64,000 bases of DNA from an uncultured bacterium (GTDB taxonomy: Bacteria > Omnitrophota > Omnitrophia > Omnitrophales > Aquincolibacteriaceae). Shown here piece after piece: positions 8,419 to 56,174 of the stretch. Numbering within the stretch: the first letter of the stretch is position 1; each line of letters opens with the position of its first letter. A program made the position numbers and the translations under genes. The stretch is from positions 15,794 to 79,793 of the forward strand of contig CAYZYT010000010.1 of assembly GCA_964482725.1 (NCBI GenBank). Reading direction: 5' to 3'. Under the pieces are notes generated by a model. It searched no databases, was not told the origin of the DNA, and was given only the letters and a program-made list of their open reading frames with translations.

Positions 8419-9368
8419 TCGGTCTCCTGGTTCTGTTTCTCTTGTCTCTGGTGGCATCCGCGTTCTTCTCGGGGGCCGAGATGGCTTTTGTTTCCGCGAA
8501 CAAGCTGAAGCTTCGCGAAATGTCGGATGCTGGAGACAAAAAAGCCAGGTTCATCCTGCAGCTCCAGCAGCATCCCAATTATTTTTTGACAGCGATCCTG
8601 ATTGGGAATAACGCGGTAAACGTTACGGCGATCTCGATCGCCACTTACATTTTTAAGGAATATTTCGGTTGGAACAGTGAATGGGCCGTAATGTTGGTGA
8701 TCGCTCCCGTATTGATTGTTTTCGCGGAGATGGTCCCCAAGGATTATGGCCGTTTGACCGCCATTCCATTTTTGTTGGGACAGACCTTCTGGCTCAAAGG
8801 TCTTAAGGCGGTCCTGTATGGCCCCATCATCTTGTTCTTCAAGGCGTTGAGCTTCTTCTGGCCCTCGTTCCAGCAGGGCGTGGTCCGGGATATTTTTGTG
8901 AACGAGGAGGAATTCCGTTCACTTATCGAGGAGAGCACGCAAAGAGGCATCGTGGGACCCCAGGAAGAAAAATTGATCCATACCATTCTGGACTTCGAAC
9001 GGATCCATGTCTCGTCGGTGATGGTTCCTGTGGGGAAGGTGCCGATGGTGGATATCCATAGCAAGATCGAGGATGTCAAACAGATCGCTCGAGAGACCCA
9101 TGTTCGCATGATGCTTGTTTATGAAGAGATACCGTCCATCGTCATGGGGATGGTCTATGTCTTCGATATCCTCTGGGAAGAGGAGAACGCCCAGGGGTTG
9201 CATGATTTTCTTCGAGCGCCCATTTTTATTCCTGAGGACACCTCCTTGGAGAAAGCTTTCCTAACCCTCCAGAAAAAGCGCCAATCTTATGCTGTGGTGA
9301 CCGATCGAGCCGGAGATGTCAAAGGAATCGTTCCGATCGAGAGGCTTCTTATGTTCGAGAAACACTGA
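8415..9368 (+). CDS. DUF21-CBS domain membrane protein (short CNNM paralog lacking CorC_HlyC)
   Basis: ATGA overlap with upstream gene; DUF21 TM region plus CBS pair; 317 aa. Confidence 0.72.
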   Translation: MIGLLVLFLLSLVASAFFSGAEMAFVSANKLKLREMSDAGDKKARFILQLQQHPNYFLTAILIGNNAVNVTAISIATYIFKEYFGWNSEWAVMLVIAPVLIVFAEMVPKDYGRLTAIPFLLGQTFWLKGLKAVLYGPIILFFKALSFFWPSFQQGVVRDIFVNEEEFRSLIEESTQRGIVGPQEEKLIHTILDFERIHVSSVMVPVGKVPMVDIHSKIEDVKQIARETHVRMMLVYEEIPSIVMGMVYVFDILWEEENAQGLHDFLRAPIFIPEDTSLEKAFLTLQKKRQSYAVVTDRAGDVKGIVPIERLLMFEKH

Positions 9369-9566
9369 GTGCCACCCGTTTTCGTGCGTCCGATAAACCT
9401 TCCAAGGCCATAGATCTTACTAAAGCGGTTCCTGCTTTTTTCTAATCTTGCCGATTTCCTTCCGAACATTCCGACCTCGCCTAGGGTGCTTTCATTACTA
9501 TAAAGCTTTACTAAGCGAAGCCGTTACATTAACACCAGTTATTTTCCCTTCAAGGAGACGAACTTT

Positions 9567-10667
9567 TTGAGAATTATCGCGATTGCCAACCAAAAGGGCG
9601 GATGCGGGAAGACCACGACCAGTATCAATTTCTCGGCCTGTCTGAATTTTCTTCAGAAGAAAGTTCTCTTGATCGATCTGGACCCGCAAGGGCATTCCAC
9701 GATCGGGCTGGGGATCAAGACCCAGAAGGGGATTTTGACCCTCTATGACCTTTTAAGCCCACTTCAACGTATCGCTCCTCCTTTTTCCCAAGTCGTTCGG
9801 AACCTGAAGCCCGATTTTGATCTCCTTCCCTGCAATGCCAGCCTGAATGCGCTTGAAGAAGAATTTGGGTTTATGCCCAATTACCATCTCAAGCTTCGTG
9901 ATCTTTTAACCCGGATCGAGGAAGATCAATGTCGTTATGACTTTGTGGTCCTGGATTGTCCCCCCAATCTTGGGATCCTTACCTGGAATGCTCTCAACGC
10001 GGCGGATGAGGTCGTGGTCCCGGTCGAGCCGTCTTTTTTTTCACTGCACGGGCTGGCGAAGATCTCTGAGACCCTCCAGGTTGTGAACCGGAGTCGTGAA
10101 ACGCCTTTGGCCGTTCATGCGCTTTTGACGCTCTTCAACTCCCAGGTGAATTTTTCTCACGAGATCTATGATGAAGTGAAAGCTCATTTCCGTGACCGGC
10201 TTTTTACGACGATCATTCATGAACATGTGAGTTTGAAAGAGTCGGCGGCCGCGGGGCAGAGCATTGTCCAATATGCCCCCCAATCCTCAGCTTTTCAGGA
10301 TTATTTGAATCTCGCGGTGGAATATCTAGAGCGGGATTGGAACCGGAAGCTTCCTGAAAAAGAACTCGGATGGGAGCAGGTCTACAAAAATCATTTCGGG
10401 CCGCGTCAGATCTCGGATGGGATCCTTTTCCAGTTCTCGAGCAAAACGGCGTCCTCGGTTGAAATCGCCGGGGATTTTAATCACTGGGTCCCGGAGCCAC
10501 TCGTGCGCCGTGATCAGGAGGGTCTTTGGCAGAAAGTCGTTTCGGTGGAGCTCAAGACGTTCCGGTACAAGTTCATTGTGGACGGCGAGTGGCAAGTGGA
10601 TCCTAGCCAGCCGACGCAGAAAGAAAACGCCTATGGCGGGGTCGATTCTTACATGGAGTTTGCTTGA
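9567..10667 (+). CDS. ParA/MinD-family ATPase with C-terminal CBM48/AMPK-beta glycogen-binding-like domain
   Basis: TTG start with AAGGAG RBS; deviant Walker A 'KGGCGKTT'; C-terminal 'GDFNHW...YKFIVDGEWQVDPSQP...NAYGGVDSYMEF' matches the AMPK-beta GBD/CBM48 signature. Confidence 0.7.
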   Translation: MRIIAIANQKGGCGKTTTSINFSACLNFLQKKVLLIDLDPQGHSTIGLGIKTQKGILTLYDLLSPLQRIAPPFSQVVRNLKPDFDLLPCNASLNALEEEFGFMPNYHLKLRDLLTRIEEDQCRYDFVVLDCPPNLGILTWNALNAADEVVVPVEPSFFSLHGLAKISETLQVVNRSRETPLAVHALLTLFNSQVNFSHEIYDEVKAHFRDRLFTTIIHEHVSLKESAAAGQSIVQYAPQSSAFQDYLNLAVEYLERDWNRKLPEKELGWEQVYKNHFGPRQISDGILFQFSSKTASSVEIAGDFNHWVPEPLVRRDQEGLWQKVVSVELKTFRYKFIVDGEWQVDPSQPTQKENAYGGVDSYMEFA

Positions 10668-11479
10668 TGACGGAAGATCCTAAGAAACTCGTTCGTGGGT
10701 TGAAAGATGTCTCGCCGCTTTTCAGCGCAGCTTTCGAAGAGGTTTCTGTCCGTCGTTCTCCCGAGATTCAGGTGTTGGGAGTTTCGAGTCCCGACTGTGA
10801 AGGCGATTCGCTTCTCTTGAATACGTTCTTTGCTTCACAGCTCACATCGCCGGATAAAGAATGTTCTCTTCTCAGCATCCTGTCGCGTTGCGCCAAGGTC
10901 CCTTCCGCAATTGAGGAGGACATGCCAGAATTGTTTGGACGTCATCTTGAACGGTATTGTCTTTATTGGGATGAGCTTCGGGATCTTATCAACGGGCCTT
11001 CATCGCCTCGATCCGAGGGAATATTACAAAGCCGGGATATCTTTCTGGATTTTGAGTATCACCATCTTCTTCATTTTGAAAAGGTTGTTTCTTTGCTGGA
11101 TAAATGGGTCTTGCTTCTAAAACCGACGGCGGAGTCCCTGACGGAAGGTTACAAAATGATGAAAGTGGGGCTTGCGCTCAATTCGGAAATGGAGTTCTAC
11201 ATCGCGCTGTCTGGCAAGGCGGAAGGTTCTCAGGGGGAGATGATCTTCGAGAGGTTCTCAGATTTTTCGGCCAGGCATCTTGATGTCAATCTAGGGTGGT
11301 TAGGGTGGATGGATCTCGCGGACCCCACGCGGCATTTTTCCGCGGCCCTTCACACGGAGCCTTTGAAATATCAATCTTGGAATGTAAAGCCCCGTCTTCA
11401 GAAGTTCATGTTGGCCGGATGGATCGAATCTTTGAAGAGAAGAACGCGGGCCAGCACCTTTGCGGAGGTATCTCGATGA
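10667..11479 (+). CDS. hypothetical protein, translationally coupled to the ParA-like gene
   Basis: ATG overlaps the upstream stop (TGATG); no recognisable family; possible degenerate P-loop-like N-terminus (see findings). Confidence 0.4.
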   Translation: MTEDPKKLVRGLKDVSPLFSAAFEEVSVRRSPEIQVLGVSSPDCEGDSLLLNTFFASQLTSPDKECSLLSILSRCAKVPSAIEEDMPELFGRHLERYCLYWDELRDLINGPSSPRSEGILQSRDIFLDFEYHHLLHFEKVVSLLDKWVLLLKPTAESLTEGYKMMKVGLALNSEMEFYIALSGKAEGSQGEMIFERFSDFSARHLDVNLGWLGWMDLADPTRHFSAALHTEPLKYQSWNVKPRLQKFMLAGWIESLKRRTRASTFAEVSR

Positions 11480-12012
11480 TCGCGACCCAGGAGTGCGTGG
11501 CCCGGCAGGAGATCTTTCAATCGATTCGTTCTTCAATTCAGGAACTTCATGCAGATAAAGTGATTCTCGAAGATGTGGACGGCACGCCGTTTCTTTTTAA
11601 AAGCAAGGATGCGCAGATCTGGGCGCGGATCTTTTATCGGTCGATGCGGGATTTTTCCGTGGAAGAATTACAGCAGGAGATCAAGAAACTTTGGGTGTTG
11701 ATGCCCAACGACGCGGTGCTCTACCTCTTCTATCCGGAACTGGATCGTGAACAGATCTTCAGGATGAATGGCTTCAGCGATCGCTTGAGCTTTTTTGAAT
11801 ATGCCGGTTTTTGTGGCGTGGAGAGAGAAAGAATGGGTGTCCGGATCTGCAAATGGATACCGTCATCGGCGCATGTCCTCAGCCCTGACCCAGAGGGGGA
11901 GTCGTCCTCTCACGTTCATATTTCTACAAAAAGTTTCTTGCAGAGCGGGCGCCTGACGCCCCAGGAAATTGCGGGGCTTGCAGAATTATCTCTAGCCTTG
12001 CGGCGGGTCTGA
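11476..12012 (+). CDS. hypothetical protein, translationally coupled (ATGA overlap)
   Basis: ATG at 11476 overlaps the upstream TGA; the longer ORF-track start at 11296 overlaps the upstream gene in another frame. Confidence 0.4.
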   Translation: MIATQECVARQEIFQSIRSSIQELHADKVILEDVDGTPFLFKSKDAQIWARIFYRSMRDFSVEELQQEIKKLWVLMPNDAVLYLFYPELDREQIFRMNGFSDRLSFFEYAGFCGVERERMGVRICKWIPSSAHVLSPDPEGESSSHVHISTKSFLQSGRLTPQEIAGLAELSLALRRV

Positions 12013-12088
12013 AGCGGTCCGCTTGGACAATCTTCCTGTATTTCGTCCTTGATGGTGCCTGACATCTCTTCTATAATCCTCGCTACCT

Positions 12089-12805
12089 ATGGCAAGCCCT
12101 ATTACTCAGAATCTTGATGTCCTAAAAAAAGCCCAGCACTTGGATAGTGAGATCCATCACTCCCATATTCTCCTGGAAGAGATCCCGGCGCAGCGGGCGC
12201 AACTCAAATCCGAACTGGAGCTTGAAAAGATCCGTTTGAATGAGCTGGAGAAATCCCTCAGGGATATTCAATTGAAGCTCAAGGATAAAGAACTGGAGCT
12301 TTCCCAAAAAGAGACCCAGATCAAAAAGCTCGACGGGCAACTCTCCCAGGTGAAAACAAATAAGGAATACGGCGCTCTTCAGCAGGAGATCGCTTCTCTC
12401 AAGGCGGACAATTCACTCCTCGAAGAGGGGATCATCCATATTCTTGATGAGGTGGATGCGGCCAAAGAAGAGACTCGCAAAGAAAAGGAGAAGCTTGCAT
12501 CCATTACAAAATCTTTTCAGGACCGTGATAACGAGATGGCGAGTCAAGAAAAGGCTTTGCAGGGGCGCCTAGCGGATCTGAAGAAGCAGCGCGAGGAATC
12601 CGTTGCTCAGTTGCCTCATGAACTTGGAGAGCTTTACAGCCGGATCGCTCTCAAGAAGCAGGGGCTTGCTCTTGCTGTTGTGAGCGGCGAGGTTTGTGCT
12701 GCTTGTCAAATGAAGTTGCGTCCGCAACTTATCAACGAAATTCGGCTTGGCGAGCAGATCATTGTTTGTGAGAACTGCTCTCGCATCCTCTACTTCGAAA
12801 ATTAG
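12089..12805 (+). CDS. COG1579-type zinc-ribbon coiled-coil protein
   Basis: Long coiled coil followed by C-terminal 'C..C...(17)...C..C' zinc ribbon; about 240 aa, typical of the family. Confidence 0.65.
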   Translation: MASPITQNLDVLKKAQHLDSEIHHSHILLEEIPAQRAQLKSELELEKIRLNELEKSLRDIQLKLKDKELELSQKETQIKKLDGQLSQVKTNKEYGALQQEIASLKADNSLLEEGIIHILDEVDAAKEETRKEKEKLASITKSFQDRDNEMASQEKALQGRLADLKKQREESVAQLPHELGELYSRIALKKQGLALAVVSGEVCAACQMKLRPQLINEIRLGEQIIVCENCSRILYFEN

Positions 12806-13056: not shown

Positions 13057-13494
13057 ATGTTTTATGGTGAATTCGAACATGTGATCGATACCAAAAGCCG
13101 CGTGATGATCCCCGCCAAGTTCCGCGAGATCTTTAAGGAACGCTATGTGGAGCGTTTTTTCATCACCCGTGGTCTCGATCAATGTTTGTTTGTTTTCACG
13201 GAAGAGCAATGGAAAACGGAAGAAAAGAAGTTCCGCGATATGCCTTTCACCAAAGCTGAATCCAGAACTTTCAACCGGCTTTTCTTTTCGGGCGCCTCGG
13301 AAGTTCTCTGTGATAAGCAGGGAAGGATCCTTATTCCGGATTATCTGAAGACCTATGCCGACATTAAAACGGAGGTCATGATCGTCGGCGTTTCTAGCCG
13401 CATAGAGATCTGGTCAAAAGAAAAATGGCAGGGATTTTTCGATCATCATAAGAACCATTTTGAAGAGCTTGCGGAAAAATTAGCAGCAGAATAG
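13057..13494 (+). CDS. mraZ: transcriptional regulator MraZ
   Basis: 'MFYGEFEHVIDTKSRVMIPAKFRE' canonical MraZ N-terminus; two MraZ repeats; 145 aa. Confidence 0.9.
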   Translation: MFYGEFEHVIDTKSRVMIPAKFREIFKERYVERFFITRGLDQCLFVFTEEQWKTEEKKFRDMPFTKAESRTFNRLFFSGASEVLCDKQGRILIPDYLKTYADIKTEVMIVGVSSRIEIWSKEKWQGFFDHHKNHFEELAEKLAAE

Positions 13495-13507
13495 AAAAGG
13501 AGTCATT

Positions 13508-13846
13508 ATGGTCTATCACGCCAGGACGAAGATCGGAGTGGATGTGTTGCGTTTCAACGGGGATCTTGATGCTCTCAGTATGATCAAGATGAAAGATCGG
13601 ATGAACCGGCTGCTTAACAGGAATCACAAACGTCTTTTGCTGGATCTTAAAGACACGAAACATGTGGAATTAGCCGGTGTCGGTATCCTTGTGGATCGCC
13701 TGCGCAAGGTGCGCGAACAAAATGGGGATATCAAATTGTGCAATTTGCGCCCTGAAGTGGAAAGGACTTTCCAGATGATCGGGGTCAATGGACTGATGGA
13801 AAGTTTTTCAACGGAAGAAGAGGCGATCCTTAGTTTTGCGTCATAA
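13508..13846 (+). CDS. STAS-domain anti-sigma factor antagonist
   Basis: 112 aa; 'VLRFNGDLDA...LLLDLKDTKHVELAGVGILV' is an SpoIIAA-like STAS fold. Confidence 0.65.
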   Translation: MVYHARTKIGVDVLRFNGDLDALSMIKMKDRMNRLLNRNHKRLLLDLKDTKHVELAGVGILVDRLRKVREQNGDIKLCNLRPEVERTFQMIGVNGLMESFSTEEEAILSFAS

Positions 13847-14744
13847 TCCCGTTCTTTTACAAGAAGTTCTTGAGCATTTAGCCTTAAGATCCGGGGCTGT
13901 TGTGATGGATGGAACCCTCGGGAGCGGGGGACACTCGGAGGCGATCCTTCGAGAAATCGGCTCCACGGGAAGATTGATAGGTTTTGATCAGGACCCTGAA
14001 GCGATCGCCAGATGTCGGGCGTTGTTCCAAGGGGATGCGCGGGTGACGTTGGTTCACGAGAACTTCAGGAATTTAGAGCGAGTTTTTTCAGGATTGGGCG
14101 TGGAGGCATTCGACGCCGTCTTATTAGATATCGGGACTTCGTCAGAACAGTTGGCGGATGGGAAGCGCGGTTTCAGTTTCCAAACGGAAGGGGAATTGGA
14201 TATGCGGATGAACCCGGAAGTCGGTCGTAAAGCTTCAGAGCTAATTGCGCAGATGTCCGAGGTCGAGCTCGCGGACCTTTTCTACCATTATGGAGAAGAG
14301 CGCAATTCGCGGCGTTTTGCCCGTGTGATTGTTGAAAGGCGGCGCGAGAATCCCATCCGGACCATTGAAGATCTCAACCAGACGCTTGAGCAAGCATTGC
14401 CCGCCCACATGCGATTTAAGAAAGGGCACCGACCTTCCTGGGCGCGCCGCCATCCGTCGACCAAAGTATTTCAAGCGCTACGGATCGGAGTGAATGATGA
14501 ACTGGAGGCGCTGAAGGAAGGTATGGGCGCAGCGTTTAGTCATCTGAAAAAAAATGGGCGGCTCGGCATCATCAGTTTTCATTCCATTGAAGACAGGATT
14601 GTGAAGCAGCAGTTCAGGAAATGGGACAGTGAAAAACTCGGAAATTTGATTTTTCGAAAACCTTTGGTTGCAAACCGTTCGGAAATATTGAATAATCCAA
14701 AAGCACGAAGCGCCAAACTGAGAGTGATCGAGAAAATATCATGA
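13836..14744 (+). CDS. rsmH: 16S rRNA (cytosine1402-N4)-methyltransferase
   Basis: TTG start overlapping the STAS gene; 'HNPVLLQEVLEHL', 'DGTLGSGGHS' SAM-binding motif. Confidence 0.88.
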   Translation: MRHNPVLLQEVLEHLALRSGAVVMDGTLGSGGHSEAILREIGSTGRLIGFDQDPEAIARCRALFQGDARVTLVHENFRNLERVFSGLGVEAFDAVLLDIGTSSEQLADGKRGFSFQTEGELDMRMNPEVGRKASELIAQMSEVELADLFYHYGEERNSRRFARVIVERRRENPIRTIEDLNQTLEQALPAHMRFKKGHRPSWARRHPSTKVFQALRIGVNDELEALKEGMGAAFSHLKKNGRLGIISFHSIEDRIVKQQFRKWDSEKLGNLIFRKPLVANRSEILNNPKARSAKLRVIEKIS

Positions 14745-15133
14745 AGGGTAGCGGAAAGATATTAGTACTCATTGCTATATTGACCTGCGGGATGCTTTTT
14801 TATGTGCATCTGCAGGTTGCTTCCGTCCTCGTCTCCTTCGAGATCCATAAAAACTCCAATGCCCTTGCCGAGAAACAAGAATTGCTCCGAAGATTCCAGT
14901 TCAAAGTGGACCAGTTGCGGGCTCCTCGGCTTCTTGAAGAAAAAATGAAACGTCACGACATGGGTTTGGCGCTTCCCAACAAGATCCAAGTGGTGGAAGT
15001 CCCTCCCGCCACTGAGCTTGTTATCCCGGTGGCGTCGGAACAAAAGGTCACGCGCACCTTTTCCTCCGAGGTCACGAGTTTTCTTGGCCGATGGATCCAA
15101 ACGGCTCAAGCCAAGACCGATATCTCCTCTTAA
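14741..15133 (+). CDS. ftsL: cell division protein FtsL-like (small bitopic membrane protein)
   Basis: ATGA overlap with rsmH; single N-terminal TM helix plus coiled coil; positioned between rsmH and ftsI. Confidence 0.5.
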   Translation: MKGSGKILVLIAILTCGMLFYVHLQVASVLVSFEIHKNSNALAEKQELLRRFQFKVDQLRAPRLLEEKMKRHDMGLALPNKIQVVEVPPATELVIPVASEQKVTRTFSSEVTSFLGRWIQTAQAKTDISS

Positions 15134-15136
15134 AAA

Positions 15137-16891
15137 ATGCGTGCGTTGCTTTCGCCGCGTCGATTCTGGTTCCTCTACATCGTTCTCTTCGTTCTTTTTG
15201 GCCTCGTAATTTATCAAATCGTCCAGCTGACCTGGTTTCATCAATCCTCACTTCTTGCGTTGGCGCATCGCCAACATTATTTGACGATCGATGTGCCGGC
15301 GTTGCGTGGCCCCATTACAGACCGTAATGGAAAAGAGTTCGTAACCAATCTCAAGATCCCCTCCATTTATGCGGTACCGCGTGCCCTGAAGGATGAGGAA
15401 CGCGCGGCCCTCAGCCGCGAAATCGCTAAGATCCTGGGGCTTGACCGGACGTGGGTGATGGAACGTTTGAGTCGGGATAAATCGTTTGTGTGGCTCAAAC
15501 GTCGCGTCACGTTTGAAGAAGCGGAGAAGATCCGAAAACTCGAGTGTCCCGAACTTGGCATTCTTGAAGAATATAAACGATTTTATCCCCAAGGGACCAT
15601 GCTCGCACAAGTGCTCGGATTTTCTACTGTGGACAATCAGGGTGTGGAGGGGCTCGAGCGATCCATGGATGCTGATCTTCGCGGGAAGCCCGGAAAACGT
15701 GTGACCCAGCGCGATGCCAAGGGACGGGAGATCAAGGCCTTTGAAATGAAGAGTTTGCCGGTGATCGATGGTAATCGTATTGTATTGACGATTGATCAGC
15801 ATCTTCAGTATCTAACTGAAAAAGCACTCGAACAGGCCTTCAAACAGTGGAAGGCCAAAGGTGCTTGGGCGGTTGTCATGGATCCCAAAACGGGCGAGAT
15901 CCTGGCGATGGCGAATCAGCCCGGGTTTGATCCCAACCGTTACGCGAATGCCGGGCCGGATGCGAAGCGCAATCGTGCGATTACCGACATGTACGAGCCG
16001 GGGTCTGTATTCAAGATCGTCGCAGCGAGTGGTGCTCTTAATGATGGGACCGTTACGCCGGAGACGGTCATTAATTGTGAAAATGGTAAATGGAATTATG
16101 GTTTCAAGGTGCTACACGACGTTCATCCTTATGGCATGTTACCGATGATGGAAGTGATCGTTAAATCAAGCAATATCGGGACTGTGAAGATTGCGCTCAA
16201 AATGGGGGCCCAGAAATTCCAAAATTATGTAAAAGGTTTCGGATTCGGGGCTAGCACCGGCATTGATCTCGCCGGGGAGGCCCCTGGGTATACGAGGCCG
16301 CCGTCTCAGTGGTCGAAGACCTCTCCCTATAATATTCCCATGGGGCAGGAAGTCATGGTGACGTCGTTGCAAATGGTGATTGCCATGTCTGTGGTTGCCA
16401 ATGGCGGCTATCTGGTAAGACCTTACATCGTTTCTAAGGTCCAGGATTCGGCGGGAGTAACGATCAAAGAAAGGAAACCGTTTATCAAACAGCGCGTGAT
16501 CAAGTCTGAAACGGCTGCGACCATGCGTGAGATTTTGACCCAAGTCGTCGAGAGGGGTACGGGAACCAAGGCGAAGATCCCGGATGTGCTCGCGGGAGGG
16601 AAGACCGGCACAGCCCAGAAGATATTGCCCGGGGGTAAAGGGTATTCTCATGCGGCTTTCATGTCCTCTTTTGTGGGATTTGCGCCTGCCGATAATCCTC
16701 GCTATGCCATGGTCGTCGTGTTGGATGAAGCCAGGCCTCTTTATTACGGAGGAGTTGTGGCGGCTCCCGTTTTCAAAGAAGTCATGGGAGCTGCTCTTTT
16801 GACCCAAAGTGCGCAACCACACCATGAAACTGTTTTGCTGCCCACGCCTGAGCAGGCGGCTGCCGTCGCCGATCTGGCTGTCGCCGATTAA
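15137..16891 (+). CDS. ftsI: peptidoglycan D,D-transpeptidase FtsI (class B PBP)
   Basis: N-terminal TM helix; SxxK 'SVFK', 'SSN', 'KTGTA' transpeptidase motifs. Confidence 0.85.
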   Translation: MRALLSPRRFWFLYIVLFVLFGLVIYQIVQLTWFHQSSLLALAHRQHYLTIDVPALRGPITDRNGKEFVTNLKIPSIYAVPRALKDEERAALSREIAKILGLDRTWVMERLSRDKSFVWLKRRVTFEEAEKIRKLECPELGILEEYKRFYPQGTMLAQVLGFSTVDNQGVEGLERSMDADLRGKPGKRVTQRDAKGREIKAFEMKSLPVIDGNRIVLTIDQHLQYLTEKALEQAFKQWKAKGAWAVVMDPKTGEILAMANQPGFDPNRYANAGPDAKRNRAITDMYEPGSVFKIVAASGALNDGTVTPETVINCENGKWNYGFKVLHDVHPYGMLPMMEVIVKSSNIGTVKIALKMGAQKFQNYVKGFGFGASTGIDLAGEAPGYTRPPSQWSKTSPYNIPMGQEVMVTSLQMVIAMSVVANGGYLVRPYIVSKVQDSAGVTIKERKPFIKQRVIKSETAATMREILTQVVERGTGTKAKIPDVLAGGKTGTAQKILPGGKGYSHAAFMSSFVGFAPADNPRYAMVVVLDEARPLYYGGVVAAPVFKEVMGAALLTQSAQPHHETVLLPTPEQAAAVADLAVAD

Positions 16892-31100: not shown

Positions 31101-34100
31101 ATTGGCGGGGAAACAGTTGAGTGACCTAACGATTTTGGGAGCCTATGGACTAAAAAGTACTCTTCATGTGAACGGTGCTCTGAGCGTGACGGGGGCGGGC
31201 GGACTCGATGTTGAGAATAACGTGATGACGCTTGGGGGCAGTCTTGACCTGACGAATATCGATCGTGTGGGGGACGTGACACTCGATGGCTCTTCAGGTT
31301 CCATCCGATCGTCGGGTGTGGAGATGAATAGCTTGACCCTCTCAGGGGCTTATACATTGTCGGATGCTCTTTATGTGAAGGAGGAACTCAATATTCAGGC
31401 GCCGGGCACGCTTGATGCCCTGGGGAAGTCCATTAGCGCAGGTGGTAACTGGTCTTTCGACCGTCTTTTCAACCCCGGGGATGTCACACTCACGGGTGCA
31501 GGCAGCATCTCTTCAAGCGGGAGTGAATTTGGTAATTTGACGATCTCGGGGGCCTATGTGCTCGAGAATGCGCTTCATGTGAACGGTGTATTGAATGTGG
31601 TGGAAGAAACGGGCGAGCTCGATGCCGCGGGCAAAGCGATCACGGTCGCAAAAAATCTTTACCTTACAAACATCGAGGGGGTTCAGGATGTGACGCTAGA
31701 AGGTGAGGGATACTTTAAATCAGACGGGGACATTTTGAATAGCCTTACCATTTCAGGAGCGTATGTGCTGGAGGATCCGGTCACGGTGACACAGGATCTA
31801 GCGATAACGGAGACGGGCTCGCTCAATGCCATGGAATTTGCTATCAGCGAAGGCGGGGACTGGTCCTTCGACCGACTTTTGAATCGTGGAGATATCACGT
31901 TGACAGGTTCTTCCAAAACGATCACTACCGGTGGGCTTCCATTCAGGAACCTGACGATTTCGGGGGGGTACACGCTTGCGGGGGCGCTTCTTGTGACCAG
32001 CGTTTTGGATGTGACGGAGACGGGAACGCTTGATGCCAATTTCAATTCGATAGAGCTTGGATGTGATCTTAATCTTTCGAACATTTCCAATCCGTGGGAT
32101 GTGACGCTCTATGGCTCCGGGTCTCTTAATTCGGCAGAAGAAAGAGAGTTGAATAACCTGACGTTCATGGGAACGAATTCGCTTGGGAGCGCGATATTTG
32201 TGAACGGGGTGTTGGATGTCGTCGCAGGCACGGGTACTCTCGAGGCCAGGGGGAACGCGATTACGGTCGCACAGAGTCTTGATCTCACCTATATTTCTGA
32301 TGCTGGGGATGTGACTCTTACGGGTTCGGGTTCTCTTATCTCCGGGGGGCAAGCACTCGCCGGTCTGACGATCTCGGGGGATTACAGCCTTTCAGATAAT
32401 GCGCATGTGACCGGTGAACTGACGGTGACGGATACGGGGGCTCTCAATGCCAACGGGAAAAACATGATACTCGGGGGAAGCCTCGATCTCACGAGGATCG
32501 AAAATTATGCGGACTTGACGCTTGAGGGTTCCGGTTCGATCAAATCGGATGGCAAGGAGATGACTAATTTGACGATCTCAGGGTCGGGGGTCTATACCCT
32601 GGACGGTGCGCTTCATGTGAATGGCGTCTTCGATGTCTCGGCGGGGAATTTGGATGCTCGTTACACCGATATGACGATTGCCGGGGACCTGGATCTTACG
32701 AATATTTTGGATCCGGGCAATGTGACGCTTGATGGTTCTTCGGGCTTCATCAATTCGGCGGATAAGGCCGTAAGAGACTTGACGATCTTGGGAAATTATT
32801 CATTGCGGGATGCGCTTCATGTGAACGGTGAGCTGACGGTGACCGGGACGGGGCTTCTCCATATCCTGGGCCAATCGATGACGCTCGCTCAGAGTCTTGA
32901 TCTCACGAAGATCCCGGACGCTCAACACGTGACACTCGATGGCTCGGGGACGATCACCTCGGGGACAAATTCCATCGCCAGTTTGACGATCGCGGATACA
33001 GGATCCTATACGCTTCGGGACGCACTCACCGTGACGGGGGATCTTGTGCTGCTAGGGAGGGGAACACTTGACGCTGGTTCAATGGCCATTAGCGAAAGCG
33101 GGAATTGGGCCTCGCTGGGTATTTCCAACCTTGGAGCTGTGACACTGACAGGCTCCGGCAAGACGCTCACTTCCAGCGGTATTAGTTTTGGAAGTTTGAC
33201 GGTGACGACAGGGACTTATACGTTGTCCCTATCAGACCCGCTCACCGTGACGGGGGAATTGGATATCCAGGGGGCGGGCAGGCTCAATGCCTCGGGAAAT
33301 AATATCAGTGAAGGCGGCAACTGGTCTTTCGACCGTCTTTCTAATTACGGGAATGTAACGCTCACGGGATCGGGAAAAACGATTACGTCCGGTACAAATA
33401 CATTCAGTAATCTGACGGTTTCTGGGACTTATTCGCTCATCGATGCGCTTCGTGTAAGCGGTGCTTTGAATGTGCCGGCCCCGGGGAGTCTTGATGTTGC
33501 GGGCCAAGCGATGACCCTTGCCCAGGATCTTAATATTTCAGGGCTGTCGCATGCCGGGGATATAACCCTCACCGGTTCAGGCATCATTACTTCCGGCGGG
33601 AATCAATTCACGAGTCTGACAATCACAGGGGCTTACACACTGGCATCCTCCGACCCGCTCACCGTAACGGGGGACCTGGATATCCAGGGTTCGGGAACTC
33701 TCAATGCTTCAGGAAATACCATTAGCGAAGGCGGGAACTGGGTATTTACAAATCTTTCCAATTATGGAGCGGTGACGCTGACGGGTTCCGGCAAAACGAT
33801 CACTTCGGGCGGGAACGCATTCAGTGATCTTAGAGTCTCAGGAGACTATTCCTTGGTGGACGCGCTTCATGTGAATGGGGCGCTCAATGTGACCGGGACT
33901 TTGAATGGCGAGGGCAAGGCCATGACGCTGGCTCATGATCTTAACCTTACAAAGATCTCGAATGCCGGCAATGTGACGCTCGATGGTTCGGGTTTCATCA
34001 CCTCCGGCGGAAGATCCGTGCAGGATCTTACGATCTCCGGAACTTATTCCCTCGTGGACGCGCTTACTGCGGCCGGAAATCTTAGTATCCCGGGGACACT

Positions 34101-36567
34101 GGATGCCTCAGAAAAAGACATCAGCGTGGGCGGGGACTGGGCCTTCCTGGGCGGTCTTTTGAATCTCGCGAATGTCACTCTGACAGGTTCCGGAAAAACG
34201 ATCACTTCCGGGGGGAATGCATTTAATGATCTGACGATCTCGGGGCTCTATTCTCTGGTGGATGCGCTCCATGTGAACGGAGCGTTGGATGTGTCGTCCG
34301 GAACCTTGAACGCCTCGAGCAAAGCGATGACGATCGGGGGCGATATTGATCTCTCGAACATTACGAATGCTCAAGGTCTGACCTTGGATGGTTCAGGGTC
34401 GATCACTTCCTCGGGCCGTCAGGTGAGTGGTCTCACGATTACGGGAGCTTATACGCTGGCCGATGCGTTGTCCGTTAGTGGCGCGTTGAATATGACGGGT
34501 ACTTTGGATGCCGCAAACCAGGCAATGACCCTTGCTGAAAGTCTTGACCTTACGAAGATTTCGAATGCCAGGGATGTGACGCTCACGGGTTCGGGGTCGA
34601 TCAATACGGCGGGTCAAGCGTTGAACAACCTTTCCGTTTCCGGCGCCTATTCCCAGGCGAGCGATCTGAGCATGAATGGGGATTTTTCCGTGCTCGAGGG
34701 CGGTAGCTTTACGGATGCATCTCCGCTGAGCCACGCGTTTACGGTCGCCGGAAATTTCTCGGTGGCGTCTGGCACGAATGCTTTCCGCCGGTACACGGGG
34801 AGCGGTACCGCGAGCGATCCTTTTGTGGTCTTGACGGCGTATGACCTTCAGGGAATGAAAGGAAATCTGGCCTCTCATTTTAAATTGAGCGGCAATTTGA
34901 ATATGGACAGTTTCTCCGGCTGGAATGACGATGCGGGTTTTGATCCGATCGGTGACGCGACGAATGCCTTCACCGGGAGCTTGGATGGGAATCAGAAAGT
35001 GATCTCGAATCTTTCCCTGAACCGGGCGGGAAGTGATTATCAGGGGCTCTTCGGAAATATTGGTTCAACAGGAAGTGTCACTAATCTTGGTTTAGAAAAG
35101 GTCAGCGTTTTCGGTGGAAATTATGTCGGCGGTCTTGCCGGGTTGAATGCCGGTGGTCTGTCGAATGTTTATACGACCGGGGCTCATACCGTGAGTGGCG
35201 TGAATTATGTGGGCGGATTGGTGGGGAGTAATACGGGACTGATCGGGAACGCTTACTCTTCGTCTCGCGTGATCGGTACGGGGAGTGTGGGCGGTCTTGC
35301 GGGGGCCAATAGCGGCACGATCGATAAGACTTACGCGATGGGGTGGGTGACGGGGACTAGCAATACCGGGGGCCTTGTAGGGGCGGGCGCCGGGTCCGTG
35401 ACGAACTCGTATTGGGATATCGATTCGACGGGACGCGCAGCACGGGCGGGTGTGACTGAAGGTGTGGGGAAAACCACATCGGAAATGATGCTCTCAAGAA
35501 CTTATTCGGGATGGAGCGATATGAATACGGCGGGCGGGACTTGGGTGATGGCGGAGGGTGGAACCTATCCTCACTTCCAGTTCCGTTATCCCAGCGGAGT
35601 GCGCGGGGTGAGCGGGGATGTGTATAGCGCCCCTGGGACTTTGGCGGGTCCCGGAACCTTGGTTTCTATTTATTCCATAGTCGAGGGATCTTCTTCCGAA
35701 ACTTTGCTCGAAGAGACGATGACCGATGCTTCAAGCGGTTACTATGTTGCGCTCAGCCAAACTTTGGTGGGGGATACGGACTATGTGATGAGTGGAAGTC
35801 TTAGTGGCACTTCAAGAATGATCGCGGAGGCGGGTAGTATTTATCCTCTTTATGTTATAGCCAATCAGGATCTCACGCTGATTCATTCCGGTCCCACTCC
35901 GAATCCCACGCCTGTTGTGATCACTCCTGTGGCGGAGGTCCCGATGATGGTCCTCCGAAGTCTGGTGGATGCCGGAGACATCCCGACCCCCCGGCCTTCT
36001 TTGAGCCCTGCCCCTCACGTGACGATCGTTGATGAGACTGAGATCCCTATTGCGGAAGCCGCTTTTGCCCCAGAAGCGAATTCTCTAGTTGAACCGTCGC
36101 ATTCGTCCGTGGTGACTTTTGAGCCGCCAGAGCGTCCGGCAGTTAGTTCCAAGTTGCAGAATCGAACGGACAACAGCTCCAATAACAGCGCAAAACTTTC
36201 TATCGTCACAGAACCTCCGGCGGGTCATGAACCTGTTCCCGAGGTGTCGGAATCGCAGAGCTTCGGAACGAATTCTTCATGGCGCAGCGAGCACGGGGGA
36301 AGAGAAGTTACTACGGATATTCGGATGAGTGAAAGCGGGCAAGGGGTCGAAGAAATCACGACAGATATCCGGATGGATGAAGGCGGAGTTTTTTCAGTCG
36401 AGAGCGGCGAAGTCAATGCCTTCGGTGGCGCGCCAGGGGTCGAAGAAATCACGACAGACATTCGGATGGATGAAGGCGGAGTCTCTTCTTTCGAAGCAGT
36501 CGGAGTCAATTCTTCGTGGCGCAGCGAGCAAAGGCTGGGGGCCCAAAGTCAGGTGTTAGGTTCATAA
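25147..36567 (+). CDS. giant (3806 aa) TpsA/filamentous-hemagglutinin-like exoprotein with TPS domain, GLUG-motif modules and PATR-like beta-helix repeats
   Basis: Signal/TM segment 'VTALVTVFAFVWSMCITPVMA'; TPS (haemagglutination activity) domain motifs 'NxGG...NIFG...N..GI.IGA.G.IN...LASTL'; three modules with 'PY.I.D.YGLQGM.GF' plus repeated 'VGGLVG.N' GLUG motifs; about 50 copies of roughly 33-aa 'LTGSGKTITSGG...LTISG.Y' repeats; true start may be TTG 25315 or GTG 25324. Confidence 0.85.
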   Translation: MENMKMENDLDQLWESSDVERGMWDGPQATSHKAHGIFMLSRCQPARSNGPIRPGRLTKVTALVTVFAFVWSMCITPVMAETVNLEGGSVDVNIQDNTTNWNVQGNPVWNVPEFNVPQGSTYNIAGLGQGSSLALLVNGGNASNIFGTMNLSNLAFILQNIAGINIGATGLINLDRASLLASTLPLNLDATQFLAQDYQFNGKGGFLMNEGKIIGNHADLVALISNAIENRGVIDVPMGTVALATGSMVTVGISGDGFVSIGVDESTANDMGLSDQIRNTGTISADGGRVILSAKAMDGLFEKAISLEQDGSALSAVKANNGSVEFVSFDDFYNSGSLSATNGHILVDSKGNITNEGTVSALSGSVEMTAGQSVYNKNLIEALGGKVEITAKEGGVKNTGTIDATDGVLTVNAREDVMNEALMKVVNGEIKATSTEGAIINAGTLDAEKGSIELNAAGTIETTGSLKAETFRERGATFRLGGHYQVGVSYHDNLDGALKMIPTHTGTSLSGTITDAGDVIVEAGTAVTLTGHTTIIADDDVNGFGFFEMLSGSSIAGGGFNLSITAGDRTGGTATENRLGSISNIGILSLNASAGGTPTYLSDPTAAIWTGITDFRISSGKLNRFTGTGSLATPYVIYDVYGLQGMQGFRDSGIYFQLDDSIDASSTLGWNGGLGFDPVGSSTASTENAPTDPFMGTLNGRNFIITGLKINRPSENFVGLFGATKDATIKNLGLGGGSVVGGDNVGSLVGYNFNTSVADFYASTSVSGGNYVGGLVGLNSGWSIITNSYVSGDVAGTGDRAGGFAGRNYQATITNSFATGVVTGGGAYRGGFIGEDTSSIYANNWWWKETAEGGHNYGLLDTGNNGDISDTKIAVEDTLADFYSSAHPVYVSSTTEGWDFDVEWLTSAGDLPTFGINPNTYLWTGTGSWSDPMNWNKSAVPGEGDVAGFNGTSIANSNIDDAFGGTLARIRIKVDYTGTITQDRSLAITGNYIQEGGIFRSDPIAQPVFSATNFYLPGGKFNRFTGTGTSGDPYMIHDIYGLQGMKGFVASGTYLELANDINASPAERWNYKGSGDAGDSANYFGFDPIGNREGNFSGVFDGAFHKITGLAINRPGTSNVGLFGRANNGNVHNVGLVGGSVIGASSVGGLIGYNYQSVVANSYSTLNVTGTEWVGGLVGTNDKNSSITRSYATGNVTNTGNTRGAGGLVGYNYDLSAITNSYATGRVSGYTDVGGLVGANENMVASFTCLAYSYSTGQVLYRGLASYAGGLVGWFASGLATKNYWDTTTSGMSNSSGVEKLPDGVTVIPGYVEGKTTAQMQQMTTFSGWNPGIWGLKAGVSYPELSLYHTRWTGAGSDSNWSTPENWSNNIVPDANTLVFFNDIGSAKASTIDAGFSGSVGYLGIGSGYGSTIDSTITQNRTLTTGDFSQSEGNFIGGDSINLHGFVLQGGSFTAPTTLNLTGGWSKSGGTFLSNSGTVNINGTGSQWLTSGGSSFNVLTINRTGTLQLQDALTVADQLTVTSGTLDVNSKNLSQGGDWSFTNLLNVGNVTLTGDGKTITSGGTSFPLLTTLTISGNYSLVDAMTIRNALNVTGTLDAATLAMTFERNVNIANVTRVGATTASGLGYTITSSGQPFASLRISGTYTLSPSDPITVTGDLATQGTGTLNAAGNAITEGGNWLFTGLSGLGAVTLTGSGKTITTPDPLINQFNDLTISGTYALAGDVDITKNGIHINGTLSVPGGTLNANSRNMTVAGSFDLTNISNAGNVVLDGSSGVITPAGKSLTSLSISSGAYSLLGPLSVGSLGVAGSLNVMSNTITTWGGIDLTNISGIQTLLLTGTGSLTSGSRVIQDLSISGTYSLASALSVNGVLSFSGAGALDALSNTMTFAQSLDLTNITNARDVVLTGSGSITSSTGKEMRNLTIASGLGVYTLEDALHVNNALDVSGGKLDADGFAMTIAGDLDLANISNAASVTLDGTTGSLTLAGKQLSDLTILGAYGLKSTLHVNGALSVTGAGGLDVENNVMTLGGSLDLTNIDRVGDVTLDGSSGSIRSSGVEMNSLTLSGAYTLSDALYVKEELNIQAPGTLDALGKSISAGGNWSFDRLFNPGDVTLTGAGSISSSGSEFGNLTISGAYVLENALHVNGVLNVVEETGELDAAGKAITVAKNLYLTNIEGVQDVTLEGEGYFKSDGDILNSLTISGAYVLEDPVTVTQDLAITETGSLNAMEFAISEGGDWSFDRLLNRGDITLTGSSKTITTGGLPFRNLTISGGYTLAGALLVTSVLDVTETGTLDANFNSIELGCDLNLSNISNPWDVTLYGSGSLNSAEERELNNLTFMGTNSLGSAIFVNGVLDVVAGTGTLEARGNAITVAQSLDLTYISDAGDVTLTGSGSLISGGQALAGLTISGDYSLSDNAHVTGELTVTDTGALNANGKNMILGGSLDLTRIENYADLTLEGSGSIKSDGKEMTNLTISGSGVYTLDGALHVNGVFDVSAGNLDARYTDMTIAGDLDLTNILDPGNVTLDGSSGFINSADKAVRDLTILGNYSLRDALHVNGELTVTGTGLLHILGQSMTLAQSLDLTKIPDAQHVTLDGSGTITSGTNSIASLTIADTGSYTLRDALTVTGDLVLLGRGTLDAGSMAISESGNWASLGISNLGAVTLTGSGKTLTSSGISFGSLTVTTGTYTLSLSDPLTVTGELDIQGAGRLNASGNNISEGGNWSFDRLSNYGNVTLTGSGKTITSGTNTFSNLTVSGTYSLIDALRVSGALNVPAPGSLDVAGQAMTLAQDLNISGLSHAGDITLTGSGIITSGGNQFTSLTITGAYTLASSDPLTVTGDLDIQGSGTLNASGNTISEGGNWVFTNLSNYGAVTLTGSGKTITSGGNAFSDLRVSGDYSLVDALHVNGALNVTGTLNGEGKAMTLAHDLNLTKISNAGNVTLDGSGFITSGGRSVQDLTISGTYSLVDALTAAGNLSIPGTLDASEKDISVGGDWAFLGGLLNLANVTLTGSGKTITSGGNAFNDLTISGLYSLVDALHVNGALDVSSGTLNASSKAMTIGGDIDLSNITNAQGLTLDGSGSITSSGRQVSGLTITGAYTLADALSVSGALNMTGTLDAANQAMTLAESLDLTKISNARDVTLTGSGSINTAGQALNNLSVSGAYSQASDLSMNGDFSVLEGGSFTDASPLSHAFTVAGNFSVASGTNAFRRYTGSGTASDPFVVLTAYDLQGMKGNLASHFKLSGNLNMDSFSGWNDDAGFDPIGDATNAFTGSLDGNQKVISNLSLNRAGSDYQGLFGNIGSTGSVTNLGLEKVSVFGGNYVGGLAGLNAGGLSNVYTTGAHTVSGVNYVGGLVGSNTGLIGNAYSSSRVIGTGSVGGLAGANSGTIDKTYAMGWVTGTSNTGGLVGAGAGSVTNSYWDIDSTGRAARAGVTEGVGKTTSEMMLSRTYSGWSDMNTAGGTWVMAEGGTYPHFQFRYPSGVRGVSGDVYSAPGTLAGPGTLVSIYSIVEGSSSETLLEETMTDASSGYYVALSQTLVGDTDYVMSGSLSGTSRMIAEAGSIYPLYVIANQDLTLIHSGPTPNPTPVVITPVAEVPMMVLRSLVDAGDIPTPRPSLSPAPHVTIVDETEIPIAEAAFAPEANSLVEPSHSSVVTFEPPERPAVSSKLQNRTDNSSNNSAKLSIVTEPPAGHEPVPEVSESQSFGTNSSWRSEHGGREVTTDIRMSESGQGVEEITTDIRMDEGGVFSVESGEVNAFGGAPGVEEITTDIRMDEGGVSSFEAVGVNSSWRSEQRLGAQSQVLGS
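25272..25321 (+). repeat. perfect 22-bp inverted repeat with 6-nt spacer (TTGTCAACCTGCCAGGTCGAAT-gggcca-ATTCGACCTGGCAGGTTGACAA)
   Basis: Verified base by base; explains the mirrored peptides in the + and - ORF-track entries at 25215..25403 and 25183..25533. Confidence 0.9.
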
Positions 36568-47971: not shown

Positions 47972-48475
47972 ATGAATGAACTTGTTTCGATCGTGATGGG
48001 AAGTGATTCGGATCTGGAAGTCATGCAGGAATGCGCTGACGTGCTCAAGGAATTTGGGGTCAGTTTTGAGATGCAGGTGCTCTCGGCTCATCGGACACCG
48101 ATCCTTGTCGCGGATTTCGCGACCCAAGCAACGCAAAAGGGTCTCAAGGTCCTTATCGCCGGTGCCGGCGGGGCCGCGCATTTGGCCGGGGCTGTGGCCG
48201 CGAATACGATATTGCCGGTGATCGGGGTGCCGTTGTCGGCGACTCAAATGAATGGTCTGGACGCGCTCTTGGCGACGGTTCAGATGCCGGCCGGAGTTCC
48301 GGTTGCTACGGTCGCGGTGGGAAAACCCGGCGCGCGCAATGCGGGTCTTTTGGCGGTGCAGATCCTGGCGCTTTCCGACGCGAAGCTGGCGGAAAAGCTT
48401 AGGAAATACAAAGATGCTTTGGTGGAAAGCAGCCGGGAAAAGAATAAGAAATTGCAGGAGAAGCTCAGGCAATAG
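47972..48475 (+). CDS. purE: N5-carboxyaminoimidazole ribonucleotide mutase
   Basis: 'VSIVMGSDSDLEVMQ' and 'SAHRTP' PurE signatures. Confidence 0.9.
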   Translation: MNELVSIVMGSDSDLEVMQECADVLKEFGVSFEMQVLSAHRTPILVADFATQATQKGLKVLIAGAGGAAHLAGAVAANTILPVIGVPLSATQMNGLDALLATVQMPAGVPVATVAVGKPGARNAGLLAVQILALSDAKLAEKLRKYKDALVESSREKNKKLQEKLRQ

Positions 48476-48518
48476 GCGGGCTCGGGATTTATTAATAAGT
48501 GGGGGCTTTGAGCGAATC

Positions 48519-54861: not shown

Positions 54862-54963
54862 AAAAATGCGAGTTTGTTTTGGTTTGACAGTGAAAAAAGC
54901 TTTCGATATACTACGGCCTCTATAAACGCTAGCCCACACAACAGATACGAAAAGGCAGAGCCT

Positions 54964-56016: not shown

Positions 56017-56174
56017 AGCGCTGCGTTTCTATTGATTTTATGAGGTTGCAGTGCTTAGCCGCTAACTCATAAAAACAAATAAAAACGGTGCTGTTTTTTT
56101 TTCTCTTTTAGCGCCCCTCCGAAAGTGGCCTCCTGCAGCTGAAGTAGACGTTTTTTCAGGATCTTTTCTGTCTT

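Follow-up and report, generated by a model that had tools for sequence, protein, structure and literature searches.

What would a bacterium do with a chromosome-partitioning type of ATPase that carries a glycogen-binding module? The question is raised by a contig of an uncultured bacterium of the phylum Omnitrophota (GenBank assembly GCA_964482725.1, contig CAYZYT010000010.1, positions 15,794 to 79,793 of the forward strand), and the 64,000 nucleotides (nt) analysed here are referred to as the window. At positions 9567-10667 an open reading frame (ORF) joins a ParA-type ATPase to a C-terminal module of the CBM48/AMPK-beta family, and it heads a cassette of three overlapping genes. An earlier sequence-only reading of this DNA had noticed the fusion and had proposed that it positions glycogen-type storage granules. 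We find the fusion in several phyla, with its predicted sugar contacts kept and with a partner protein that bears a short, ParB-like N-terminal peptide. The reading that we prefer, while giving it slightly less than an even chance, is that of a ParA-type ATPase switch acting on alpha-glucan (glycogen) particles. Lengths below are in amino acids (aa), and the cassette is made up as follows.

9567-10667, + strand: ParA–CBM48 ORF, 366 aa, with a TTG start
9567..10337, + strand: ParA/Soj-type ATPase domain, residues 1-257 (from Pfam and solved relatives)
10338..10394, + strand: linker, residues 258-276 (from alignments)
10395..10664, + strand: CBM48/AMPK-beta-type module, residues 277-366 (from Pfam and alignment to 1z0m and 4yef)
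10667..11479, + strand: ORF2, 270 aa, the putative partner, with a predicted disordered N-terminus and then a MinD/FlhG-like fold
10682..10723, + strand: N-terminal peptide of ORF2, KKLVRGLKDVSPLF, residues 6-19 of 270 aa, a candidate ParA-ATPase-activating motif
11476..12012, + strand: ORF3, 178 aa, with a predicted alpha/beta core (residues 1-130), a variable linker and a conserved C-terminal helix

The ParA-type ATPase domain

Judged from its sequence, the N-terminal part of the protein is a complete Soj-like deviant-Walker-A ATPase. It contains the deviant Walker A motif KGGCGKT, the motif DLDPQG and the Walker B motif VVLDCPP, and the residues K10-G-G-C-G-K15-T16, D37/D39 and D130 are invariant across the aligned ParA–CBM48 sequences, so that the marks of the ParA/MinD superfamily (deviant Walker A, Walker A' and the Walker B aspartates) are all present. 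The Pfam model AAA_31 matches residues 1-179 (E 1.2e-47, 162.5 bits, cut-off 27), which bears out the KGGCGKTT-bearing ParA-type ATPase of the sequence-only reading; CbiA matches as well (E 2.4e-16, 60.3 bits, cut-off 25.4), as do the BcsQ and MipZ models. The nearest solved structures for the N-terminal 273 aa are ParA 8ray (E 6e-49), Thermus Soj 1wcv (2e-42) and Helicobacter pylori Soj 6iub (3e-35), with MinD and McdA far behind (McdA of Cyanothece, E 8e-12) and the bacterial MinD model of NCBIfam at 43.4 bits against a cut-off of 212.9.

The family has two signatures of its own in this domain, C13 and the motif EPSFFSLHG, which accompany the CBM in the genome and metagenome hits that were kept and whose C-terminus lies on the contig, locus L138 being a possible exception. 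In the linker W258, P263 and L267-G268-W269 are strongly conserved in the core Omnitrophota and not in other phyla; G278-P279, just past it, are conserved as well.

The plainest explanation would be an ordinary chromosomal ParA (Soj) with a decorative extra domain, followed by unrelated ORFs that are kept there by chance synteny. The ATPase domain is indeed about 40-45% identical to chromosomal ParA/Soj structures, and public sources annotate the protein as 'AAA family ATPase' or 'chromosome partitioning protein'. Such a ParA would not be expected to have family-specific signatures that travel with the CBM, to be translationally coupled to two further genes, to lie in no inspected locus beside parB, and to keep a partner gene and its peptide across phyla while other neighbours change; all of this is found here, and we consider this explanation very improbable.

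Distribution of the fusion

More than 120 clusters at 90% identity share the length and architecture of the ParA–CBM48 protein, full-length relatives occur in 119 of the 185,579 species genomes scanned, and a scan of metagenomes gave at least 580 confirmed ParA–CBM48 stretches. Because the architecture recurs in clusters, species genomes and metagenome stretches alike, the fusion is not a matter of chance. Most of the 119 species genomes belong to Omnitrophota (95-40% identity), and metagenome-assembled genomes (MAGs) of Nitrospirota, Zixibacteria and Gemmatimonadota follow at 38-41%; among the metagenome matches listed, some are Desulfobacterota by their source names ('Deltaproteobacteria', Desulfatiglandaceae). 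The fusion is real and ancient, and it is under constraint.

The CBM48 module and its predicted sugar contacts

The C-terminal module scores above the curated thresholds of two Pfam models, AMPK1_CBM (PF16561; residues 293-359, E 5.2e-11, 43.0 bits, gathering cut-off 26.8) and CBM_48 (PF02922; residues 277-342, 30.2 bits, cut-off 22.4), and the scores of orthologues from other phyla are higher, the best being 58.5 bits. When the C-terminal 93 aa are used alone, the best matches are the AMPK beta1 CBM structures 4yef and 1z0m (E 4e-7), with AMPK beta2 also among the best and with pullulanase, SEX4 and GlgB as weaker matches, and the glycogen-binding-like domain first seen by eye in the sequence is therefore upheld. 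In a residue-level alignment to rat 1z0m, W307, K335 and W342 are the equivalents of AMPK beta1 W100, K126 and W133, and the probable counterparts of G147 and N150 are G357 and D360, a pairing that requires a gap of one residue. All five are invariant in 29 Omnitrophota sequences of 56-85% identity. Both Trp residues are also invariant in Nitrospirota, Zixibacteria and Gemmatimonadota, where the probable G147 position is conserved too; K126 is matched by K or R across phyla, with R in Zixibacteria and Gemmatimonadota, and N150 by D or N. In AMPK beta1 itself the substitutions W100G and K126Q abolish glycogen binding, while W133L and G147R weaken it (PMC6274970).

A phmmer search with the CBM alone against 1.84 billion representatives gave 5853 matches at E <=1e-3, and the top-scoring relatives are bacterial proteins of 3-18 tandem AMPK1_CBM/CBM48 repeats. 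Since the contact residues are kept and these repeat proteins are the nearest relatives, the module is best placed in a bacterial clade of alpha-glucan-binding modules and not with generic Ig-like folds. The sequence-only reading had named two findings that would speak against it, a generic Ig-like fold lacking the binding residues and the fusion of the domain to unrelated partners: W307, K335 and W342 prove to be conserved, and fusion to other partners is seen only in so far as related CBMs form the tandem arrays, which are themselves carbohydrate-binding. The tandem-CBM48 proteins (P0360-P0509) form a large, apparently uncharacterised bacterial group that consists of nearly nothing but repeats, and many of them have four copies in about 470-490 aa.

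It may nevertheless be asked whether the CBM48 binds a target other than glycogen, such as ORF3, ORF2, another protein or a different glucan, in which case the trio would position some other cargo and the CBM would be an interaction domain. The near invariance of linker and CBM within Omnitrophota would fit a protein–protein interface too, but the conserved positions are exactly the sugar contacts of AMPK beta1, including surface Trp that a pure protein interface would not need, and the nearest relatives of the module are tandem CBM48 arrays. We return to this explanation below, with the gene neighbourhoods.

The conserved neighbourhood

The genes in this part of the window all lie on the + strand. 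The last base of the ATPase stop codon TGA (10665-10667) is also the first of the ORF2 ATG at 10667, giving TGATG, and the ORF3 ATG (11476) overlaps the ORF2 stop (11477-11479), giving ATGA, exactly the overlaps that had been described for a three-gene cassette. The 270-aa length of ORF2 is backed by a called gene and by a 100%-identical database protein, and the ORF list also holds an alternative start, TTG 10664.

In Omnitrophota, down to 40% identity of the ATPase, the gene order is nadD, CNNM, CNNM, ParA–CBM48, ORF2, (ORF3), a CdsZ-like gene, mraZ, STAS, rsmH, ftsL and ftsI. Outside this phylum, in Nitrospirota, Zixibacteria, Gemmatimonadota and Desulfobacterota, only the partner remains of these neighbours. 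The partner gene found there is homologous to ORF2 (hhalign 99.3%, E 1.6e-20), and in five phyla the gene after that of the ATPase encodes an ORF2 homologue or, failing that, a protein with the same N-terminal peptide; a minority of loci have no peptide-bearing partner, and in some lineages another protein body carries the peptide. Nitrospirota have an ORF3-like gene after the partner, with weakly supported homology (77%, E 2e-5). Because the partner peptide persists while the other neighbours change, we take the conserved unit to be the ATPase–CBM48 protein together with a protein that has this N-terminal peptide, and ORF2 behaves as the cognate partner that the sequence-only reading had suspected among the downstream ORFs. 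The view that the cassette is a general part of the division and cell-wall (dcw)/mraZ operon was rejected, the linkage being limited to Omnitrophota.

The place of the cassette in Omnitrophota, fixed upstream of the CdsZ-like gene and the run from mraZ to ftsI, can also be read as pointing to a glycogen sensor, in which the CBM48 ligand would act on a ParA that governs segregation, replication or the division site in the manner of Soj, MipZ or PomZ, tuning its dimerisation or ATPase activity, and would couple the carbon store to the cell cycle. The closeness of the ATPase domain to chromosomal Soj/ParA agrees with this, as does the inhibition of AMPK by glycogen through the same CBM residues (PMC6274970). 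A gene for a MerR-type helix-turn-helix (HTH) protein directly upstream of the ATPase gene in nine metagenome loci can be counted here too. Since the dcw link is missing in the four other phyla, however, it may be mere conserved gene order, and no ParB, MinC/E, FtsZ-binding or PomX/Y-like partner is present. The DNA-contact residues, treated below, bear on the same explanation.

The nine loci with the MerR-type gene (L092, L096, L097, L118, L123, L131, L133, L150 and L158) are non-Omnitrophota, and the encoded protein is small, of the form '...ISRRQLQYW...GGHxRYxFxDL...AGVSVQRIR...' (for example L096 7267-7734). In a Pfam census upstream of the metagenome loci the MerR-type HTH was the only recurrent family (8 of 121 proteins), and the protein could serve the system as a regulator or as its DNA-binding part. 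Four other loci have upstream of the module a protein of about 190-200 aa that starts MTRDEIYDHLAQVYLGKK and continues with a hydrophobic segment (L120 1422-2015, L141 7287-7892, L144 3361-3933 and L160 2149-2721); L120 and L160 have no LGRGL-type partner downstream, and in L141 and L144 the downstream sequence is too short to judge.

The partner and its N-terminal peptide

Neither ORF2 nor ORF3 of the window matches any Pfam or NCBIfam model, and at that level the earlier description of the downstream ORFs as family-less holds; at the level of structure it does not, as ORF2 has a recognisable fold and ORF3 a weak fold resemblance. The AlphaFold2 model of ORF2 has a mean predicted local distance difference test score (pLDDT) of 80.7 and a predicted template modelling score of 0.78, with residues 1-29 disordered, and its fold is MinD/FlhG-like at an identity of only 16-18%. 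The position of the Walker A motif reads SSPDCEGDS, without any Gly-Lys-Ser/Thr, and because this replaces the Walker A motif the model points to a pseudo-ATPase, that is, a P-loop-less MinD/ParA fold. The Nitrospirota orthologue of ORF2 matches Pfam CbiA above threshold, from profile position 15 on. ORF2 as a ParA paralogue recognisable in sequence was considered and rejected (hhalign of the ORF2 family against the ParA–CBM48 family, probability 0.1%); the kinship is visible only in the fold and in the Nitrospirota orthologue, which has diverged less.

The most conserved stretch of ORF2 lies within its disordered N-terminus and reads K-K-L-x-R-G-L-K-D-(I/V)-S-P-L-F in a 30-sequence alignment, L, R, G, L, S and F being invariant in these 30 Omnitrophota sequences and L-x-R-G-L in 11 sequences from other lineages. 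Partners outside Omnitrophota start (K/R)-L-G-R-G-L-E-(D/E)-(I/V)-S-x-(I/V)-F, and the form common to the whole family is L-x-R-G-L-x-D/E-I/V-S-x-x-F. A loose regular expression for the peptide, run over 1.6 Mb of DNA with 4697 long reading frames, matched 149 of them, about 127 of which lie directly downstream of a ParA–CBM48 gene.

The N-terminal stretch of ParB/Spo0J stimulates the ATPase of Soj/ParA. The N-terminus of Thermus Spo0J begins MSRKPSGLGRGLEALLPK and that of Caulobacter ParB includes EGRRGLGRGLSALLGE, and the ParB-family N-termini compared contain GLGRGLEALL and GLGRGLSALL. They share with the ORF2 peptide an L-G/K-R-G-L core, the hydrophobic residues that follow it, the basic residues that precede it and a location in a disordered N-terminus. 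Many partners of ParA/MinD ATPases act through their N-terminal region, with C-terminal regions binding the matrix (2024 family review, PMC11407121), and there is good motive to infer that the ORF2 peptide is an ATPase-activating peptide.

The peptide also occurs on proteins of only about 125-185 aa (L088 1276-1827, L089 2927-3301, L100 1195-1731 and L105 9101-9643), which carry it near the N-terminus as (R/K)G(F/L)x(D/E)IS/AxxF and whose body in L088 and L105 has a Cys motif. Those of L088, L100 and L105 have no Pfam match and show nothing of the pseudo-ParA fold; it is the peptide that seems to be portable.

ORF3 ends in a conserved helix with the motif FLQxxRLTxxEIAGLxELSLAL. Its model (pLDDT 72.7) gives consistent but weak matches to PD-(D/E)xK nuclease folds, with NucS/EndoMS first in Foldseek (probability about 0.9 but E about 0.1), and the catalytic D...(D/E)xK residues, judged by eye, are not kept, so that ORF3 weakly resembles an inactive, NucS-like fold of this kind. 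In L073 (7229-8212, + strand) an ORF2-like protein of 328 aa ends in the ORF3-type C-terminal helix motif (LTTQEFIALSRLGIELRSQRF), which suggests that in this lineage ORF3 is fused to the ORF2-like protein or replaced by it.

DNA-contact residues and the question of a matrix

In H. pylori Soj the contacts to DNA are made by K199, K227, K230 and K247, the quadruple mutant being without DNA binding (PMC6393308). The window ATPase has H198, E219, S222 and Q239 at these positions. It has Q193 at the equivalent of R189 of Bacillus subtilis Soj, which we take to be a non-specific DNA-binding residue. None of 29 core Omnitrophota sequences has a basic residue at the K230 position, and about half of them have Arg at the R189 position; divergent Omnitrophota and the other phyla have K/R at both. 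As the basic positions are kept in most family members and replaced in the clade of the window, the family as a whole may plausibly bind the nucleoid, but for this clade such binding is doubtful.

No repeat arrays or strong palindromes of a parS-like or centromere-like kind were found in 9300-12200 (the canonical parS was not searched for elsewhere in the window). For a glycogen sensor that acts on segregation or division, the retention of the K230 equivalent and of R189, presumably a DNA-binding position, in most members outside the core Omnitrophota is a favourable sign; the lack of flanking parS-like repeats is not, and in the clade of the window all four lysine positions are without Lys or Arg and the R189 equivalent is lost too. 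We regard the sensor as unlikely.

Is glycogen the cargo?

The closest link to glycogen metabolism is found in an Omnitrophota MAG (locus L108), where the ParA–CBM48 gene is followed by genes for the pseudo-ParA partner (KKLGKGLDDISYLFL), an ORF3-like protein, a Cu-oxidase_4 protein, a DUF4912 protein and a GH57 branching enzyme (Glyco_hydro_57 + BE_C). The DUF4912 protein (MBU1087819.1; 4587-6434, + strand) has a long, lysine-rich N-terminal region that contains KKLGKGLEDISTLFL, nearly identical to the partner peptide, and a glucodextranase-B-like C-terminal domain. DUF4912 gave no match in plasmid records, and nothing relevant on it was found in the searchable literature. Two further loci lie beside glycogen enzymes: in a Deltaproteobacteria MAG (L110) a 1434-aa fusion of glycogen synthase, DUF3417 and phosphorylase is encoded directly upstream of the module, and in a Desulfatiglandaceae locus (L105) the module is preceded, at a distance of 1.1 kb, by a GH57/DUF3536 gene. 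Glycogen synthesis is commonly encoded in Omnitrophota MAGs (PMC8542988).

Several points weigh against a glycogen switch. Of about 66 diverse loci only 3 have glycogen genes next to the module, where by our own estimate about one would be expected by chance, and none of the 80 genome loci examined has them there. No alpha-glucan family is among the 25 most frequent Pfams of 148 downstream and 121 upstream neighbours in the metagenome loci, and the conserved neighbours in Omnitrophota are cell-division genes and not glycogen genes. The glg genes that the sequence-only reading would have looked for are absent among the window ORFs that were scanned or identified by synteny (a 3806-aa ORF and several small ORFs lie outside that scan). 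Crude motif expressions for GlgA, GlgC, GlgP and GH13 had no match in the 1.6 Mb of DNA. CBM48-type domains can also work as protein-interaction or regulatory modules, as they do in AMPK. The classical diffusion-ratchet places the activating partner on the cargo, and a cargo-binding domain that belongs to the ATPase itself is at odds with it. The likeness of the peptide to ParB, finally, spans only about 6-8 residues, and a 26-position profile of the ORF2 peptide did not retrieve Spo0J/ParB from the PDB, giving only a chance 8-mer in Lin1832, for which reason the resemblance is stated here as one at the motif level.

The want of a recurrent glycogen gene is also what would be expected if the CBM48 bound something else. 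That the partner is the only universally conserved neighbour, that ORF3 has a conserved C-terminal helix and that the partner body differs between lineages, as it should if cargos differ, would all suit a non-glycogen ligand; against this stand, besides the sugar contacts, the three loci beside glycogen enzymes and the DUF4912/GH57 pair that shares the peptide. On balance we hold a non-glycogen ligand to be improbable. A shared peptide beside a branching enzyme is qualitatively more telling than the count of 3 in about 66. Of the original proposal of glycogen-granule positioning, then, the constrained fusion and the kept binding residues stand, while granules as the cargo are not borne out by the neighbourhoods. 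The weights that we give to the several explanations do not exhaust the possibilities, and the remainder belongs to ones not listed here.

A possible mechanism

ATP turns ParA/MinD ATPases into sandwich dimers, and MinD dimers gain their affinity for the membrane from two amphipathic helices. If the ATPase is a switch acting on glycogen particles, its ATP sandwich dimer would present two CBM48 modules and for that reason could bind the polyvalent glycogen surface by avidity, as MinD does the membrane. The N-terminal peptide of the partner would then dock on the dimer and bring about ATP hydrolysis, as the N-terminus of ParB/Spo0J does on Soj, and the ATPase would be released; cycles of binding and release would space out or partition the granules. 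In most family members, where the DNA-binding Arg and Lys of Soj are kept, the nucleoid may be the track along which granules are distributed, whereas in the clade of the window, where the DNA-contact residues are replaced, the ATPase may cycle on the surface of the granule itself. The pseudo-ATPase body of ORF2 and ORF3 might serve as scaffold or adaptor, and the peptide-bearing DUF4912 protein of L108 may be a second client.

A bolder form of this proposal would make the fused CBM48 a third surface mode for such ATPases, besides DNA and membrane, and the cassette the first dedicated system for the partition or positioning of glycogen granules, reset by a pseudo-ATPase partner through a borrowed ParB-type peptide and with DUF4912-like proteins as clients. 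We consider this possible, and rather more doubtful than not.

Relation to known systems

The cassette resembles ParABS (Soj/ParA with Spo0J/ParB) in its deviant Walker A ATPase domain and in a partner gene immediately downstream, whose product has a basic stretch followed by L-G/K-R-G-L-x-x-(L/I/V). It differs from ParABS in the C-terminal CBM48 of the ATPase, in a partner that has no ParB/Srx or HTH domain and is predicted to have a P-loop-less MinD/ParA fold instead, in the lack of parS-like repeats and, in the clade of the window, in the substitution of the Soj DNA-contact residues; Pfam scans of about 270 neighbouring proteins found no member of the ParB family. With McdA/McdB and other ParA systems for non-DNA cargo it would have in common a small, lineage-variable partner acting through its N-terminal region (PMC11407121) and a ParA-type ATPase dedicated to a cytoplasmic non-DNA structure. 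In McdAB, however, the partner binds the cargo and the ATPase only the nucleoid, whereas here the putative cargo-binding domain is part of the ATPase, and no carboxysome (ccm/cso) genes occur in related loci or among those genes of the window that were scanned or annotated by synteny.

The proposed likeness to MinD lies in a C-terminal appendage whose surface affinity would be effective only in the ATP dimer, and in a partner that, like MinE, acts through a short peptide; the appendage is a CBM48 beta-sandwich of 80-90 aa and not an amphipathic helix, and the neighbours are ORF2 and ORF3 with no minC/minE. The AMPK beta CBM is the best solved match, with equivalents of its contact residues kept, but the module is joined here to a P-loop ATPase and not to a kinase scaffold subunit. 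ORF2 is unlike FlhG/FleN in having no Walker A lysines or glycines, in its identity of only 16-18%, in the lack of a flagellar context and in its ParB-like N-terminal peptide.

A ParA ATPase, a CBM48 and an N-terminal activating peptide are thus each of a kind already known. What appears to be new is their combination: a carbohydrate module on the ATPase, a partner that is predicted to be a pseudo-ATPase and bears a ParB-like peptide, and a small third protein with a weakly supported nuclease fold. No ParA–CBM48 or ParA–glycogen system was found in the searchable literature, a scope outside which most subscription-journal papers fall.

Flanking signals and other genes of the window

Three further features flank the cassette.

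9422..9438, + strand: terminator-like stem-loop and T run that separate the cassette from the CNNM gene upstream (from a consensus scan only)
9553..9557, + strand: Shine-Dalgarno sequence AGGAG, 9 nt 5' of the TTG of the ATPase gene (read from the sequence)
12089..12805, + strand: CT398/CdsZ-like gene, coiled coil and C4 zinc ribbon (Pfam Zn_ribbon_9 and CT398_CC; synteny)

The stem-loop and T run that precede the cassette suggest that it is a transcription unit of its own. The CdsZ-like gene is constant between the cassette and mraZ in Omnitrophota, and other phyla do not have it next to the module; a promoter scan gives it a promoter-like site of its own at 12049-12077, and it probably lies outside the core module. 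Further downstream a gene for a STAS-domain (anti-sigma-antagonist-like) protein (13508-13846, + strand) lies between mraZ (13057-13494) and rsmH (13836-14744), an insertion present in every Omnitrophota locus that covers the mraZ-rsmH region. The division and cell-wall cluster (window 13057-16891) ends after ftsI and is followed by unrelated genes, and a separate block of mreB, mreC, a gene for a 171-aa protein, PBP2 and rodA lies 38 kb downstream, at 54874-60274.

Elsewhere in the window, positions 25147-36567 (+ strand) are a single ORF of 3806 aa, and just upstream of it lies a 653-aa ORF without a Pfam match (22907-24868, + strand); giant genes have been reported for Omnitrophota (bioRxiv 10.1101/2023.11.21.568195). 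A 446-aa fusion of a Sua5/YciO/YrdC domain to a low-molecular-weight phosphotyrosine phosphatase is encoded at 48252-49592 (+ strand).

Implications

ParA/MinD ATPases are a general bacterial solution to the problem of placement, used for chromosomes, plasmids, carboxysomes, chemoreceptor arrays, flagella and the divisome. To our knowledge, the distribution of glycogen granules at bacterial division is essentially unstudied. The 2024 review of the ParA/MinD family names no carbohydrate store as a cargo (PMC11407121). Were the ATPase to act on glycogen particles, a major carbon store would join the list of cargos, and it would follow that the ATPase itself can carry the surface-binding module, as a MinD-like avidity switch working on a polysaccharide. 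The partner would be of a new kind, a copy of the ATPase fold that lacks the Walker A and bears a ParB-like activating peptide, and the GH57 branching enzyme neighbour in one locus would give the first functional lead for DUF4912 proteins. The cassette that would do this is small, with two or three genes, and is widespread in uncultured phyla.

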